In this document: piece after piece, positions 2,207-9,073 of the stretch
How the letters are laid out: the number at the start of each line of letters is the position of its first letter
How positions within the stretch are numbered: the stretch's first letter is position 1
Program-made: the position numbers and the translations under genes
IMG/VR virus record: IMGVR_UViG_3300020440_000014
Span: 1-64,000 of that record
DNA: 64,000 nt
Strand: one strand, 5' to 3'
From: a virus
Lineage: Duplodnaviria > Caudoviricetes
Notes under the pieces: generated by a model
The model's database searches: none
The model's input: the letters and a program-made list of their open reading frames with translations, nothing else
Told to the model about the DNA's origin: nothing

Positions 2207-2413
2207 ATGTCTGGCAAAGGAAGTAAAAGAAGACCTAAAGTTGTCTCAGAAAAAGTCTTTGCTGATTCATGGAATAAAATCTTTTCTAGAAAGAAAACAC
2301 CTAAACATGGACTTACTCAAGTTCATAAAGACAAAACTAAATTCAAAAGAAAAGACAAATATCCTACACCTAATTATGAGGGTCCATGGGGTAAAGATTT
2401 GGGTTTAGATTAA
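2207..2413 (+). CDS. Small basic hypothetical protein
   Basis: 68-aa Lys-rich ORF starting 2 nt after the bS21 stop; its stop overlaps the convergent gene's stop. Confidence 0.55.
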   Translation: MSGKGSKRRPKVVSEKVFADSWNKIFSRKKTPKHGLTQVHKDKTKFKRKDKYPTPNYEGPWGKDLGLD

Positions 2414-3939
2414 GTAGGTATAACTTTAGTAGCAGTAGTATCTACTGATGAAGGTTCACCACTACCACTATACGAAGCAGAATTAGAAACGGTGTTATTG
2501 ACAATAGGCATAATGTTGTTCATATAATCTTTTTCAACATTTGTTAGTTCTTTACCTTCATCCATTTTTTGTTGTAATCTTTCACCGGTTTGTAATTGTA
2601 AGTCAGAATTACCAACACCTGATAATGTCATGTTAGCTTGTTGTCTATTAATTTCTTGGTTTGGATTTAGTTCTTCGAACTCTCTCTCAAGGTCATCAAA
2701 ATCAAATCTATTATATGCCTCACCATCTTTACCTTCAGTTGCCATGAGATTGATTCTTTCTTTGGCAGATAGACCTTCTTCATCTTGATACTGAGCTGCT
2801 ATCATTTGCAGTTGTTGTAATCCTATTTGTTCTTCTGCAAGATTTTCTTCTGCTAGTTTTAATCTTTGTTGATATCTTTCTTCTGATTCGAATTTTCCTT
2901 TACCCTTAGATTTTATTTTATCAAGTTTAGTTTGTGCTGTTGCGACCTGAGATTCTTGGTCAGCCATTTTGAATTGAGCAGTCAGAGCAGTGAAATTAGC
3001 TTGTGCAGACATTCGTTTTTCTTCTTCTCGTTCTTCTTGTTCTTCTACGGTGATTCCTTGTTTTGATAATGCTTCACTTCTCAAGTTATCACCTATTTCA
3101 TCATCAACTTTATCGATGAATCTTTCTTGTCCTACACCTTCTATTGCAACTGCCTGTCCATCAATTTCTTCAACTAGTCTACCTTGAGAATCGAGATACA
3201 TCTCATTTGTTATTAAACCTTCTTCTCGTATTTTCTTTTCTTTTTCTGCATCAGATATTTCCATAGCATTGATTTCTGCAACACGGTCGGCATCTTTACT
3301 TCGTTGTTCTCTTAATGCTCTTTCGGTGGTTCTTGTTACTATTTTATTTTCTACGTCTTTTCTTTGTTCATCTCCAAGAAATCCAAAAATATCATCTAAT
3401 CCTAATATAAATGCATCGAACATATTCATAACTCGACCAATCACATTTTGAAGAGTATTGAATGTTGCTTGAAGAATGCCAACAAAACCAAAACTTTTAG
3501 CAAGTTTGTAAAGAACAACAAGAACGGCACCTACAGCTGCAACTATCAATAAAAATTTTAAACTTAAGAAACCAACGCCTAATTTTAATTGTTTAAATTT
3601 AGAAGTTAATCCTTTAGTTTCTTTTGCATTCTTTTTCGATTGTTTGGACTCTTCCTTCTTTGCTTTTGATGAGAATAAAGTAGACCTTGATAAAGAAGTA
3701 AATAATGCTGAAATTGGTGCAAAAAGATTACCAAACGCCGCCAATTTATTACTTACGGATTCTCCGATACCTTGCAAGTCAATCATACCACCAGATAGTT
3801 CTTTTAGACCATCTGAAAATTTTGCACCAGATTCACCAACACTTTGCTTTACTGCTTTAAATGTTTCTGCTATAGGTGTTGTAAACTTAGTAACAATATC
3901 TTTTACTAGTTTATCGTTGACTTGTACTGCTTCTGCCAT
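2410..3939 (-). CDS. Probable tape-measure/baseplate-hub protein (gp29-like role)
   Basis: 509 aa, helical and charged, one hydrophobic segment (FLSLKFLLIVAAVGAVLVVLY); last gene of the tube-like/gp26/gp51 block. Confidence 0.55.
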   Translation of the reverse strand: MAEAVQVNDKLVKDIVTKFTTPIAETFKAVKQSVGESGAKFSDGLKELSGGMIDLQGIGESVSNKLAAFGNLFAPISALFTSLSRSTLFSSKAKKEESKQSKKNAKETKGLTSKFKQLKLGVGFLSLKFLLIVAAVGAVLVVLYKLAKSFGFVGILQATFNTLQNVIGRVMNMFDAFILGLDDIFGFLGDEQRKDVENKIVTRTTERALREQRSKDADRVAEINAMEISDAEKEKKIREEGLITNEMYLDSQGRLVEEIDGQAVAIEGVGQERFIDKVDDEIGDNLRSEALSKQGITVEEQEEREEEKRMSAQANFTALTAQFKMADQESQVATAQTKLDKIKSKGKGKFESEERYQQRLKLAEENLAEEQIGLQQLQMIAAQYQDEEGLSAKERINLMATEGKDGEAYNRFDFDDLEREFEELNPNQEINRQQANMTLSGVGNSDLQLQTGERLQQKMDEGKELTNVEKDYMNNIMPIVNNTVSNSASYSGSGEPSSVDTTATKVIPT

Positions 3940-4313
3940 TATTTACCGAATGCCTTTCCTGCTTCACTGATACCAAAACAACCAAGTGTTACTACAACAA
4001 ATGATGTATAGATAGTATCAGATATTTCTAATGGAGTTCCGTCCATTGCTGTGATTAAATCGAAAATACCAAATGCGACCATCATTGCGAAGGATATAAA
4101 CCCTACGATAGCCTTTTCATTTACATCATTATCATCTAAGAAGACATCGAGAATTCTTCTCTTCTTCTTAGGTTCGATAGATTTCTTTTGTGCTTGTGCA
4201 TCAGCTTTGAGTCTAGCGATTTCTTTTTCTTTTTCATGAAGATTATTAATTAGAGTATCGTACTTCTCTAAATCTAATTCTACTTCATTTCTGCTTTCTA
4301 CTGATTCTGCCAT
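3939..4313 (-). CDS. Small membrane protein with N-terminal coiled coil and two hydrophobic helices
   Basis: 'AIVGFISFAMMVAFGIFDLI' and 'IYTSFVVVTLGCFGI'; TAATG coupling to gp51; GGAG upstream. Confidence 0.7.
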   Translation of the reverse strand: MAESVESRNEVELDLEKYDTLINNLHEKEKEIARLKADAQAQKKSIEPKKKRRILDVFLDDNDVNEKAIVGFISFAMMVAFGIFDLITAMDGTPLEISDTIYTSFVVVTLGCFGISEAGKAFGK

Positions 4314-4507
4314 TATCTCCTCTTATGTTGTTGACGCCTCACACGTTCATTCTCTTCTTCAAGATGTTGCATGAGAAGTTTTATATATATCTCCCTTTCC
4401 CATGGTATCATCTCTTCAAGTTCAGTTAACGAATACTTATGATGTTGCATTAACTGAAAATTAGTTTGATAGTAATTATATACCGATTCGTGAGAAAGGG
4501 TTACTAA
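4313..4507 (-). CDS. gp51: gp51-like baseplate hub assembly protein (missed by ORF track; probably a frameshift extension of gp26)
   Basis: Hand translation: ..HESVYNYYQTNFQLMQHHKYSLTELEEMIPWEREIYIKLLMQHLEEENERVRRQQHKRR*; first in-frame ATG at 4450 has no SD. Confidence 0.8.
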   Translation of the reverse strand, partial: LVTLSHESVYNYYQTNFQLMQHHKYSLTELEEMIPWEREIYIKLLMQHLEEENERVRRQQHKRR

Positions 4508-5208
4508 AAAAAATTTTCTAGTCCTTTTAATTCTACTATCTGCTTGGTATCACAAACAGGACATTTAAGTTCAATGTCATGTTTCAGAGATGGTATTGAT
4601 TGCAACCATTCACCAATCATTTCGATTTGTGCTACGGTCAAACTCTCAACAAACTCGTCAACTTCTGTTTCAGAATAATCAAGCATGTCATAGACATTAT
4701 CTTCATCATATATTTGTTCAATAGAAGATTTCAATATTGCAAAGAATGATGCTTGTTCATCTTTACTATCTAACTTTTGTTGAACACTTGCTTTAGGAGG
4801 CGACAATACAACTCCTAAAGATTCACTTAGTTGAAGTTTTGAATCAGGCATTTCTTTTGTATCAATATCTACCTCATTTAAATTCAACTCATATGGTGTA
4901 ACTCCTTTACAATCTTCTGTTTTACAAGGTATGTTTAATTTGACGGTTTCACCAACCGATTTGCAACGTACTTGTAAAAAGAAATATTCAAGGTCTGCTA
5001 ATGCCATATCATCAGCATTTAGTTTATCGAATGAAACTGCTTTAACTAAATTAGATAAAGCTTGATACATTTCTTTTTCATTCTCACCTTCTTGCATAAG
5101 AACTAGATTTCTTTGTTCTTTAACAAGAAAGGGTCTAAACTTTACTTGTTCTCCACTTAAAGGCAACTCACAAAAATATTCTGGTGCCTTTTGTATAGGT
5201 AACGCCAT
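4504..5208 (-). CDS. gp26: gp26-like baseplate hub subunit / tail assembly chaperone
   Basis: 'MALP....P.Y..ELP.SG..VKFRPFLVKE', 'LQVRCKSVGE', C-terminal CxxC and 'GLENFF'. Confidence 0.85.
   Translation of the reverse strand: MALPIQKAPEYFCELPLSGEQVKFRPFLVKEQRNLVLMQEGENEKEMYQALSNLVKAVSFDKLNADDMALADLEYFFLQVRCKSVGETVKLNIPCKTEDCKGVTPYELNLNEVDIDTKEMPDSKLQLSESLGVVLSPPKASVQQKLDSKDEQASFFAILKSSIEQIYDEDNVYDMLDYSETEVDEFVESLTVAQIEMIGEWLQSIPSLKHDIELKCPVCDTKQIVELKGLENFF
4506..4516 (-). promoter_or_regulatory. Putative -1 ribosomal frameshift slippery site
   Basis: Minus strand reads GAA AAT TTT TTT TAG; heptamers A_AAT_TTT and T_TTT_TTT just before the gp26 stop; the -1 frame is gp51. Confidence 0.55.
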
Positions 5209-5220
5209 AATTTACTCCTA

Positions 5221-5958
5221 TTAGCCGAATATATCATCGACTCTATTCAATGTACCGTTTAGGTTATTTATCCTGTCCTGGAATTTTGATAATGTTTTAT
5301 TACTTTTACCAAAAACACCAAGTGCTTGATTGAATGCCCCCAAAGCTCTAGAACCTTTGTTCAATGTATTTTTTATAGAATTGAACATACTGGTATCACT
5401 TATGTAATCTGTAGTGAACGTTCTAAATGCCATTGTGACTTCAAACTTCATTATATCATCTGTACTTTCCATAGATAATTCTTGAGCTGCATATGATACT
5501 GGATATGCTTCATGTAATGTGTATCTTAAGACATCGTCTTCTGAACGATTCATGACATTGATATTAACTTCACCAACATAGTCATAGTAATACGAAAATT
5601 GTGGATTTACAGAATTGCCTACTTTATCTCCTGAGTCAGATGCATAGATTGTATCTTGCCATGCTTGAATTAAAAATCTATCAGCAAATGAACTATCACA
5701 TAAAAATGTAAATGCAGCTTCTCCACCATCCATAGATATTTGATTGGGCATCTTTCTTGTTGGTCCATATTCTGACCAATCTGTGGTTTCTATTTGTCTG
5801 CCTGGTAAAACTGCTGACGTGCATCTAACACCGTCTATTGCAAATCCAAGATTAGGACAATTCATTGTTACTTCGAATCTATTTGCTCTCGCACCTTGGT
5901 CAAATTTGTATCGAAGTTCATCAATACTTGTTCTTCTTTTTCCGAATATATCAGCCAT
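5221..5958 (-). CDS. Tail-tube-fold protein (gp19/gp54-like)
   Basis: 'ARANRFEV', 'LPGRQIET', 'YTLHEAYPVS', 'FEVTMAFR' resemble gp19 at 53710. Confidence 0.75.
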   Translation of the reverse strand: MADIFGKRRTSIDELRYKFDQGARANRFEVTMNCPNLGFAIDGVRCTSAVLPGRQIETTDWSEYGPTRKMPNQISMDGGEAAFTFLCDSSFADRFLIQAWQDTIYASDSGDKVGNSVNPQFSYYYDYVGEVNINVMNRSEDDVLRYTLHEAYPVSYAAQELSMESTDDIMKFEVTMAFRTFTTDYISDTSMFNSIKNTLNKGSRALGAFNQALGVFGKSNKTLSKFQDRINNLNGTLNRVDDIFG

Positions 5959-6539: not shown

Positions 6540-7313
6540 CTATTTATGATAAATCGTATAGTTTTCGAACTCTATTGGTGATAAGTTTTGTGAATAAAGA
6601 AGTAAAAGAGACCATAAATCTTTTTCTTGGAATTCGTAATCGTTTTTAGTCTCTACGAAAACGCCATTGTCTCCTTCAGTTCTGAAGTAATTACTCAACG
6701 ATGTTTCTAAGTTGCCTATTATGATAGGTTTCTGATTGCAATAAATTTCGTCTTTGATTACTTTTTCCATATAATGCATATCATCTCGGTCTTCGCCAAC
6801 ATGCATCTCTAACATGTGTTTATGATATGTGCAAAATGTATTTTTGATTGGAACTTCCGAGAAAATATTCATCCATTCATCAAATGACAAAGCGGGGGAA
6901 TCCAGCAAATCATCTTCATCCCAAACAATCACTTTGGAATCCCATAATTCCAACATTATCATGGCATAAATTCTAGACAAACCTGGATGAAAAAAGATAT
7001 TAAATCTATCGTCTTTTAATTTTAGATGACCTTGTATTGTAGAATAAAATCCTATTGTTTTTTGTTGTTCTATTAACCAAGAAACTTTTGCGCCTATAAA
7101 GGCATCACTATTTTTGTCAGTTGTGTTTATGTTGTCAATCAGTGCTTTAACATTTTGACCTTTACTTTCCTTATTATGAGTCAGTTCTAAATTATATGGT
7201 TTTAAATCTTTCAAAGGCACGTATTTGACTTTGACGCCAATCTGATTGTAAATAGATTTTATCTCATCTTTATTAGTTGTAAAGATATCATAGATGTGTT
7301 TAATTAAAGGCAT
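6540..7313 (-). CDS. Hypothetical protein with ParB/Srx-like 'HPG' domain
   Basis: 'AKVSWLIEQQKTIGFYSTIQG...FFHPGLSR' shared with ORFs at 40852 and 45460. Confidence 0.65.
   Translation of the reverse strand: MPLIKHIYDIFTTNKDEIKSIYNQIGVKVKYVPLKDLKPYNLELTHNKESKGQNVKALIDNINTTDKNSDAFIGAKVSWLIEQQKTIGFYSTIQGHLKLKDDRFNIFFHPGLSRIYAMIMLELWDSKVIVWDEDDLLDSPALSFDEWMNIFSEVPIKNTFCTYHKHMLEMHVGEDRDDMHYMEKVIKDEIYCNQKPIIIGNLETSLSNYFRTEGDNGVFVETKNDYEFQEKDLWSLLLLYSQNLSPIEFENYTIYHK
6541..6548 (-). promoter_or_regulatory. Late promoter variant for gp2 block
   Basis: CATAAATA on the minus strand a few nt upstream of the gp2 ATG. Confidence 0.45.
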
Positions 7314-8052
7314 TGAGAAACTCCTCTACTCTTTTTAAGTCTTGCATTGTATCTACGGAGAGACCTTCATCTTCTACTCTTACCATTTGCACATCGTAAC
7401 CATTTTCTAGAAATCTTAACATCTCAACACTTTCTGCCTTTTCAAGAGCACCAATATCAAGTCTTGGAAAGATTTCTAACATTTTACGACTAAAACAATA
7501 AAGACCCATTTGTTGATTGAAAGGCATCTCTTCTTTTTGTGCAAAAGGTATTGGTAGTCTTGAAAAATATTGTGCAAGGGATAATTTGTTTTTAACTACT
7601 TTCACAATATTTGTATCGTGTTGTTTGTACATGCCTTGAACTTTTGTAAAGGCATTAGATACGCCTATATCATCGTTATGAATTTCTATGAGTGTATCGA
7701 TTGCTTCAGGATTTATCAGAGGTTCGTCACCTTGTATGTTTACAAATTTAGAACCATCTACAAGTTCTATAGCTTTTGCACATCTGTCTGTACCAGTTCG
7801 ACATTCATCTTCAATAACAATACAACGCATTTCACGTTTAGAACAATAATCGTTTATTCTCTCGTCATCGGTTAACACAACTACGCTGTCTAAATTTTTT
7901 GCCATGAGAGCTCTTTCATAAACTCTACGTATCATGGGAATGCCATTAATTTTTGCTAGGGGTTTGCCTTCGAAACGAGACGAATGCCATCTTGCAGGTA
8001 TAAAACCTATAGTGAGATTACTTGACTTATCTGGTCCGCTGAGACTTCGCAT
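7300..8052 (-). CDS. kdsB: CMP-Kdo synthetase-like cytidylyltransferase
   Basis: 'IPARWHSSRFEGKPL..I.G..MI.RVYE', 'TGTDR', 'VNIQGDEP', 'LEKAESVEMLRFLENG', 'SVDT..DL'. Confidence 0.92.
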   Translation of the reverse strand: MRSLSGPDKSSNLTIGFIPARWHSSRFEGKPLAKINGIPMIRRVYERALMAKNLDSVVVLTDDERINDYCSKREMRCIVIEDECRTGTDRCAKAIELVDGSKFVNIQGDEPLINPEAIDTLIEIHNDDIGVSNAFTKVQGMYKQHDTNIVKVVKNKLSLAQYFSRLPIPFAQKEEMPFNQQMGLYCFSRKMLEIFPRLDIGALEKAESVEMLRFLENGYDVQMVRVEDEGLSVDTMQDLKRVEEFLNAFN

Positions 8053-8624
8053 GTCACTTCTCCATATCCATATTTTGCATATATAAAATCAACACCTGCT
8101 CTGTTTGCACAATACAAATCTGATGGCATATCACCAACATATATTGCATCATGTGGGTCAACATTACAGAATGCCATAGTATATAGTAATTGGTCAGGAG
8201 CAGGTTTACCTCTTAGACCTTTTTTAGGCGCACAAACGTAATCAAATTTTGGAAATTTTTTTCCTTTTAATATCAAACTCGCAATAACTTTCTCTACTCT
8301 TACCATATCTTTAGAAGTGCAAATTGCAATTTTACTTCCTGCTTCTTTTATCTTTTCTAGTGTTTCGATTGCACCTTCGTATATCTCAACTTCGTCAATC
8401 ATCATATTTGAAGCTTCATCGTAGGTATCTTTAATTTTATGATGCGATTCAGTAATGTCCAATTCTTTCAATATATCAAAGAATGGTTTGCCAATATGTT
8501 TTTTATATTCATCAAAAGAAACTTCTATATTGTGATGAAGTTTTACAATGTTCCAAGACATCTCCATATTTTTTATTGAATCGATGAGCACTCCGTCTAA
8601 ATCGAAGATGTATAGTTTTTTCAT
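8007..8624 (-). CDS. HAD-superfamily phosphatase (Gph/PGPase-like)
   Basis: Motif I 'IFDLDGVLIDS', 'KPAPD', 'YVGDMPSD'. Confidence 0.9.
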   Translation of the reverse strand: MKKLYIFDLDGVLIDSIKNMEMSWNIVKLHHNIEVSFDEYKKHIGKPFFDILKELDITESHHKIKDTYDEASNMMIDEVEIYEGAIETLEKIKEAGSKIAICTSKDMVRVEKVIASLILKGKKFPKFDYVCAPKKGLRGKPAPDQLLYTMAFCNVDPHDAIYVGDMPSDLYCANRAGVDFIYAKYGYGEVTCEVSADQISQVISL

Positions 8625-9073
8625 TTTCTTTTAGGTAATATTTCTTCTTCAGTTAGAATTCTAAATTTCATTTTTCTATCATCACAATACTCTTTCGCCA
8701 TTTTAAACTTTTCTTGATTTATTACATAAGTATTTACAGCATTGAAATAGTATTTCGTCTTTCTTTCTGGTGTTTTAGGTGGGAATAATTGTTTCTTTGG
8801 TTTAACTTCGATGATTTCTCTAATAATTTGTTTGTCTTTGTTTATATACTTTATATAGAAATCAGGAAAGTATCTATGGACTTTTTTATCGATAGGACTT
8901 CTATAAGGTATGATAAGTTCTTCTGAACCCCATTCAAGTATTGCATCATTATTATCACACCAGACCATGAATCGTCTTTCTAGAAGAGAACGATAGAAGA
9001 TTTTTGTTGGGTCGCCTTTATATTTTTTGTAGTTCTTTGGTTTGAATCTGCCGCTATATGGTTTTTTAGACAT
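8621..9073 (-). CDS. gp4: gp4-like head completion nuclease (TnsA-like fold)
   Basis: 'YSGRFKPKNYKKYKGDPT.I.YRS', 'WGSEE..IPY.SP', 'RYFPDF', 'IEVKP', 'F.ILTE'. Confidence 0.92.
   Translation of the reverse strand: MSKKPYSGRFKPKNYKKYKGDPTKIFYRSLLERRFMVWCDNNDAILEWGSEELIIPYRSPIDKKVHRYFPDFYIKYINKDKQIIREIIEVKPKKQLFPPKTPERKTKYYFNAVNTYVINQEKFKMAKEYCDDRKMKFRILTEEEILPKRK

Follow-up and report, generated by a model that had tools for sequence, protein, structure and literature searches.

A probable -1 frameshift joins the gp26-like and gp51-like reading frames of a T4-like phage

How is a gp51-like sequence translated when it begins, out of frame and with no evident start site, where a gp26-like gene ends? 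This question is raised by a 64,000-nucleotide stretch of viral DNA (positions 1 to 64,000 of IMG/VR record IMGVR_UViG_3300020440_000014; hereafter the window), in which a gp26-like gene closes on a run of T and a gp51-like sequence continues in the -1 frame. The lambda G/GT frameshift is a standard textbook example of recoding. A -1 frameshift is conserved in the tail assembly chaperone (TAC) genes of long-tailed phages (Levin 1993; Xu, Hendrix & Duda 2004; as cited in PMC5009743), and a 2016 NAR review of recoding describes the G-T frameshift as conserved among long-tailed phages 'except T4' (PMC5009743). A preliminary description of the window had read gp26 and gp51 as a recoded chaperone pair of the lambda G/GT type. 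We consider it highly probable that the gp26-like gene yields proteins of 234 and 298 residues through a -1 slip on a U run and that these proteins act as chaperones. Direct support comes from the slip signal and its conservation, from coding in the -1 frame without a start codon, from homology to T4 gp51 and from the likeness of the fold to that of TACs.

The gp26-like gene and its extension lie on the minus strand, as do the neighbouring tube-like gene, membrane open reading frame (ORF) and 509-residue ORF. The zero frame of the gp26-like gene runs from 5208 to 4504 (234 codons plus TAG). Its product matches Pfam PF12322, T4_baseplate, over profile positions 2-218 of 219 (E 4e-50; 170.9 bits against a curated cut-off of 24.5) and phrog_150, 'baseplate hub', in PHROG. 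The 3' end of the gene reads GAA AAT TTT TTT TAG. Here the slippery heptamer U_UUU_UUU (4513..4507, minus strand), which follows the X_XXY_YYZ pattern in the gp26 register, lies within a run of eight T (4513..4506, minus strand), and the UAG at 4504-4506 is directly next. Read from 4507 in the -1 frame, the extension begins LVTLSHESVYNYYQTNFQLMQHHKYSLTELEEMIPWEREIY... and encodes a gp51-like domain of 64 sense codons up to a TAA at 4315..4313 (4313..4507, minus strand). The predicted trans-frame product therefore has 234 + 64 = 298 residues and the junction ..GLENFF-LVTLSHES.., and the junction-spanning peptide predicted for the window phage is GLENFFLVTLSHESVYNYYQTNFQLMQHHK. The first ATG of the -1 ORF (4448..4450, minus strand), which gene callers would take as the start of a 45-residue ORF, has no Shine-Dalgarno (SD) sequence. 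Its anti-SD duplex is at +0.9 kcal/mol, compared to -6.5 at the gp26 start and -7.2 at the start of the next ORF. The 45-residue ORF is matched by phrog_634, 'baseplate hub assembly catalyst' (gp51), at E 4e-18. Between the gp26-like and gp51-like ORFs there was no site resembling a promoter or a terminator. The preliminary description was thus right about the 64 open codons, the junction peptide and the position of the motif NYYQTNF upstream of an ATG that lacks an SD. Its two overlapping slippery heptamers are both present, but A_AAT_TTT is peculiar to the window phage and the relatives keep only T_TTT_TTN.

An open -1 frame beyond the stop is found in 12 of 46 long ORFs of the window and hence is not unusual alone, since that frame is often occupied by a neighbouring gene. 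Only 1 of the 46, the gp26-like gene, has an in-register T6 inside its last 10 codons. The decisive evidence for the signal is comparative. We collected 4 close and 80 more distant IMG/VR loci (30-71% protein identity), which together with the window gave 86 distinct genes. T_TTT_TTN was in register in all 86. The zero-frame stop followed after 0-8 codons, and in 80 genes after 0 or 1, and the -1 frame was open for 56-70 codons from the heptamer in every case. The codon preceding the Phe pair was AGT, AAT, TCT, GAT or GGT, with an invariant final T, and the first Phe codon was always TTT. The last base of the heptamer was C, T or A, so that the second residue is sometimes Leu (TTA). The T retained across five different codons, together with the Phe/Leu variation, indicates that protein constraint does not explain the T-run. 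Judged by codon usage elsewhere in the same genes, the probability of both synonymous choices at the heptamer is ~0.43 per gene.

The nearest isolates to the window phage are cyanophages and the pelagiphage Mosig, with a gp26 identity of only 30-37%. Among 13 isolate phages with a single such gene, which span 25-53% GC and very different hosts, the heptamer was present in 12: S-PM2, P-SSM5, BUCT-ZZ01, pelagiphage Mosig, Stenotrophomonas phage Mendera, Xanthomonas phage X1, Ralstonia phage RSP15, Paraglaciecola phage GD1, Aeromonas phages Aeh1 and AsSzw2, a KVP40-like vibriophage and a Desulfovibrio phage. Single-protein scans with the Mendera and KVP40-like gp26 added near-identical loci only, and a T4 gp26 query recovered only close T4 relatives. 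As the preliminary description had supposed, the pair is normally annotated as two genes. This is so in the GenBank records of S-PM2, P-SSM5, Mosig and GD1, while in Aeh1 (L089, AY266303) the 58-codon -1 extension (3208-3381) is unannotated and appears as a gap in the record between gene 26 and ORF187c.

Codon-position variability was followed in 60 junctions aligned without gaps. Upstream of the heptamer, the most variable position was the third codon position of the zero frame. From the heptamer onward, variability peaked at the third -1-frame position on either side of the ATG (entropy 0.96/0.70/1.40 on the upstream side). The third-position variability therefore changes frame exactly at the heptamer. 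Over 30 codons, stops were present in none of the 60 rows in the -1 frame and in 60 and 59 rows in the other two frames. The 19 codons between the heptamer and ATG 4450 are conserved as protein, and the extension peptide LSH[DE]SL.NYY.TNF.LMQHHKYSLTELE.M.PWEREIY is shared among the relatives. The position of their first ATG, GTG or TTG ranges from codon 0 to codon 55 of the extension. Two relatives (L077 and L082) have no such codon before codon 55, one (L073) has none before codon 32 and one (L042) none before codon 29; in these four phages the conserved peptide cannot arise by ordinary initiation. The -1 ORF is thus open from the slip site and has neither a start nor an SD of its own. Collectively, the T-run and the -1 register, which the preliminary description had expected to recur in relatives, and coding upstream of the ATG were found in 86 of 86 IMG/VR genes and in 12 of 13 one-gene isolates.

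T4 itself encodes the same two parts in a different way. T4 genes 26 and 51 are direct neighbours with divergent transcription, and PF12322 is found in both products, covering residues 1-206 of gp26 (208 residues) and 1-201 of gp51 (249 residues). The additional 45 C-terminal residues of gp51 match the -1 extension (gp51 207-244 against extension residues 7-45; 36% identity, E 1e-6), and the match covers residues encoded upstream of ATG 4450. T4 gp51 is therefore a PF12322 (gp26) domain and an extension-like tail in one chain. This tail belongs to phrog_634, and to PF28602 in the protein collection. The T4 proteins are homologous to the window pair and have the same short and long forms; the difference is that in T4 the forms sit on two divergent paralogous genes, whereas in the window they would come from one recoded gene. 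Unlike the window gene, T4 gene 26 ends GAG TTC TTT GAG TTA CTA TAA, without a slippery heptamer, and a 58% relative that has its own full-length gp51 reads G_TTT_TTT, in which the first position of the heptamer differs. Whole-genome scans placed two PF12322 genes in T4 and a single one in each of S-PM2, Mosig, Aeh1 and PC-Liy1. The window record, a 72.8-kb linear fragment that is only ~40% complete (CheckV), gave one match. A separate T4-type gp51 gene was present in 1,380 phage records, mainly of enterobacteria and Acinetobacter phages and some Aeromonas phages. In a tree of the PF12322 domain the T4 gp26 and gp51 clades are adjacent (support 92/58) and the gp51 branch is very long. T4, where each form has its own paralogue, looks like a derived case, though the tree is unrooted, leaves the order of events undecidable and cannot settle the ancestral state.

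Although the frameshift itself may be real, the two proteins could have another function: they could be structural hub subunits, or chaperones of further hub proteins, for example gp27/gp5 analogues, and their TAC-like fold could be a common small alpha/beta arrangement. Structure, position and the T4 literature bear on this. A sequence search of the PDB with the gp26 profile returned no related solved structure, and Foldseek against the PDB gave only noise (TM ~0.1). AlphaFold models were obtained for the window gp26-like protein (predicted local distance difference test, pLDDT, 88.6) and for P0003, a database protein of 295 residues in which the two parts are fused in frame (pLDDT 90.2). Residues 1-90 were compared exhaustively with 48,161 PDB chains. 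The top three chains were identical in both models and stood well above the next unrelated rows: 2OB9 (HK97 gp13 tail assembly chaperone), 3FGX (Rbstp2171) and 3KLU (YqbN). These are exactly the three solved TACs. They differ from the gp26-like protein in being single-domain proteins of ~100 residues with 6-13% identity to it. In the models, the upstream product thus appears to adopt a TAC fold over residues ~1-90. The rest of it forms an alpha/beta domain with a four-Cys zinc-ribbon-like motif, which is missing in some relatives, and the extension is predicted to be helical with a long charged helix at its end. Leiman et al. (2010) describe T4 gp26 and gp51 as 'hub assembly chaperones', gp51 being required yet not found in the particle (PMC3004832). 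The GenBank record of Acinetobacter phage vB_AbaM_Berthold (MN709128, 119798-120547) names its T4-type gp51 'tape measure protein assembly chaperone'; no paper behind this annotation was found. Together with the location of the gene between a tube-like gene and a long ORF of variable length, as for TAC genes, these results make a non-chaperone function unlikely. They favour the reading of gp26 and gp51 as a recoded chaperone pair, as first proposed, since residues 1-90 match the TAC fold and T4 gp51 carries the gp26 domain and the extension in one chain.

The candidate for the tape measure that such chaperones would serve is the 509-residue ORF (2410..3939, minus strand), which lies directly downstream of a 124-residue ORF with predicted membrane helices (3939..4313, minus strand). 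Its orthologues vary in length (509, 565 and 684 residues), and its translation, inspected by eye, has a hydrophobic segment and charged, probably helical stretches. A neighbour cluster in a protein language-model resource (Atlas) carries T4_Tape_measure at a score of 0.93, which serves as a lead only. Position, variable length, these features and the Atlas lead make this ORF a putative tape measure gene.

In the mechanism we propose, the majority of ribosomes would terminate at the UAG and release the 234-residue protein. A minority would slip one base back on U_UUU_UUU, either by tandem slippage of two tRNA-Phe or by P-site slippage with the stop codon waiting in the A site, and would translate 64 further codons to give the 298-residue gp26-51 fusion. 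The short and long forms would jointly chaperone the assembly of the baseplate hub and tape measure, like lambda gpG/gpGT and P2 E/E+E'. Binding to the tape measure would fall to the TAC-like N-terminal domain common to both forms, and the scarce helical -1 tail would bring in another partner. T4 would reach the same result with two paralogous genes, 26 for the short form and 51 for a long form needed only catalytically. That slippage occurs, how efficiently and with which stimulators, that both proteins are made and in which ratio, and all of the binding partners are what we infer from the comparisons above.

Candidate stimulators were sought on both sides of the heptamer. The zero-frame stop that directly follows it is one possible stimulator. 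Upstream, across the family, an SD-like GGA or GGAG lies 8-12 nt from the heptamer, with a mean duplex of -6.4 kcal/mol compared to -1.15 kcal/mol for background windows of the same genes. In the window this corresponds to AAAGGA (4522..4527, minus strand; Lys-Gly codons), 8 nt upstream, a possible stimulator of the dnaX type by inference only. Downstream, a weak hairpin (4483..4500, minus strand) begins 6 nt after the heptamer and forms 5 of 7 pairs in the window phage (-1.9 kcal/mol). Across the 60 relatives only 57% of cells pair, although covariation is above that of shuffled and slid controls. RNAalifold gave no consensus structure on the 60 junctions, and an Rfam scan of 4200-4700 found nothing.

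Several observations weigh against this account. The SD-like duplex of the window is weak (-3.7 kcal/mol), and the hairpin is not a general element and possibly stimulates in a subset of relatives only. The proposed tape measure is not matched by PF25671 at E up to 10 (T4 gp29 scores 1388 bits), nor by BLASTP with T4 gp29 (E 0.35), and an NCBIfam search on its identity gave nothing useful. The preliminary description, which had called this gene tape-measure-like, was therefore borne out in position and features and not in family. Vibrio phage 1.255.O (L113, MG592621; 1240-1280) is the sole one-gene relative seen without a canonical heptamer. Its gp26 end reads CTT TTT CGC TAA TG. The T-run has five letters and an ATG overlaps the stop, so that in this phage the slip may have given way to coupled initiation; the related RSP15 combines T7 with TGATG. 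Finally, transcriptional slippage could add to the effect, given the eight T in the window phage.

Transcriptional slippage could also be the whole mechanism. RNA polymerase stuttering on the T8 run (4506-4513) would add one U or remove two, and a subset of the mRNA would then carry the two ORFs in frame. Eight T is near the lower limit of the run lengths that promote polymerase slippage (reviewed in PMC5009743). Singleton database proteins (P0003, P0005, P0012, P0017 and P0021; 291-300 residues) do have PF12322 and the extension in one frame with the exact predicted junction (..FF-LIALSHES..). P0003 and P0017 in particular would suit such slippage, although a true in-frame variant, a polymorphism in homopolymer length or a sequencing error in the T-run may lie behind any of the singletons. 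In contrast, the run in most relatives is only six T long and in the exact ribosomal register. This makes slippage of the ribosome the more likely conserved mechanism and leaves polymerase slippage with little probability.

The two-gene reading, in which a 45-residue gp51-like protein starts at ATG 4450 or by termination-reinitiation and the T-run is kept for a Phe-Phe end, draws on the GenBank annotations, on 1.255.O and on relatives such as Mendera and RSP15 with an ATG 1-4 codons past the heptamer or overlapping the stop, but is very improbable given the missing SD beside the strong SDs of the neighbours, the -1-frame selection on 19 codons before the ATG that align with T4 gp51, the four start-less relatives, the invariant T before Phe codons of which the second can be Leu, and the covalent joining of this domain to PF12322 in T4.

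The window phage is confirmed as T4-like by a gp32 single-stranded DNA-binding protein (PF08804; 885-1778, plus strand) and a gp53 baseplate wedge protein (PF11246; 10282-11016, plus strand). Directly upstream of the gp26-like gene lies the tube-like gene (gp48/gp54/gp19 class; 5221..5958, minus strand), which matches phrog_45, 'tail tube', at E 5e-27 and, under the curated cut-off, PF06841 at E 4e-5; a gene for a DNA end protector (gp2) is also upstream. The order is as the preliminary description gave it: tube-like gene, gp26-like gene, gp51-like extension, 124-residue membrane ORF and 509-residue ORF. Further upstream, a small gene island (6540-9073, minus strand) sits amid tail and baseplate genes, with matches to a cytidylyltransferase (PF02348, E 2e-44), a HAD phosphatase (PF13419, E 3e-31) and a TnsA-like endonuclease N-terminal domain (PF08722, E 1e-22). 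It may comprise auxiliary sugar-nucleotide genes and a homing-type nuclease; its 257-residue ORF (6540-7313) matched no family.

The 124-residue membrane ORF has a strong SD, and its ATG overlaps the stop of the extension (ATAATG). In a separate group of database proteins (P0069, P0063, P0096, P0087 and P0093; 160-178 residues, clusters of up to 43 members), a gp51-like domain that starts MQHHKYSL... is fused in frame to a tail of ~110 residues with an EF-hand-like DxDGDG motif and two membrane helices. In phages with this fusion, the frameshift product would be a gp26-51-membrane protein. In the window, the membrane ORF is separate from the extension and only weakly similar to the fused two-helix proteins (E 7e-4). 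The overlap of membrane ORF start and tail stop, and the in-frame fusions in other phages, point to a speculative extension of the model that we hold to be unlikely: the -1 tail would be an adaptor to the adjacent two-helix membrane protein, the rare long form would anchor the tape measure, coated with chaperone, and the nascent hub at the inner membrane, and membrane-bound tail initiation would be ancestral in T4-like phages, with the duplicated 26/51 pair as an un-recoded descendant.

Our literature search found no report of a gp26/gp51 frameshift, subscription-only papers (Xu 2004, Taylor 2016) aside. The window locus and its roughly one hundred relatives indicate the frameshift for a wider T4-like group that takes in cyanophages, pelagiphages, KVP40- and Aeh1-types, and Stenotrophomonas, Xanthomonas and Desulfovibrio phages. 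T4 gp26 and gp51 thereby gain a concrete, testable role in hub assembly. Hundreds of phage genomes would call for an annotation correction, as they list a 'baseplate hub subunit' and a 'hub assembly catalyst' of 45-60 residues, or omit the second ORF. The sites also form a natural series of U6N sequences in varied context for the study of -1 slippage beside a stop codon.

Compared to known chaperone frameshifts, the window pair resembles lambda gpG/gpGT in that a -1 slip on X_XXY_YYZ near the end of the upstream ORF would let one gene encode both a short protein and a version lengthened at its C terminus. Lambda requires both of its forms, in a fixed proportion. In both systems the second ORF lacks its own start, the N-terminal domain has a TAC-like fold, and the gene follows a tube-type gene and precedes a long ORF of variable length. 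The pairs differ in having no sequence similarity (hhalign probability <1%). The gp26-like protein has roughly double the length and carries an additional alpha/beta zinc-ribbon domain. Its extension has 64 residues compared to ~140 for lambda T, its stop follows the heptamer immediately, and a membrane ORF intervenes before the putative tape measure. P2 E/E+E' is likewise from a myovirus, slips on a U6 run (T_TTT_TTG in P2; T_TTT_TTT/C/A here) and has a short -1 extension (~56 residues) immediately upstream of the tape measure, but P2 E has 91 residues compared to 234 here. The likeness of 'SLTEL...W.RE' to P2 E', suggested in the preliminary description, did not hold, since it came down to the pentapeptide SLTEL, which is all that is shared, with an hhalign probability of 1%. 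Searches of the lambda gpG/gpT and P2 gpE/E' families against the window pair gave hhalign probabilities of 0.1-1% and a BLASTP E of 0.31, and Pfam returned PF12322 only. The pair does have the in-register heptamer of the G/GT class, in an arrangement conserved despite divergence, with the exception of 1.255.O. Together, these results place the window pair as a chaperone frameshift of the G/GT type in working principle and fold, and by family as PF12322 joined to a gp51 tail.
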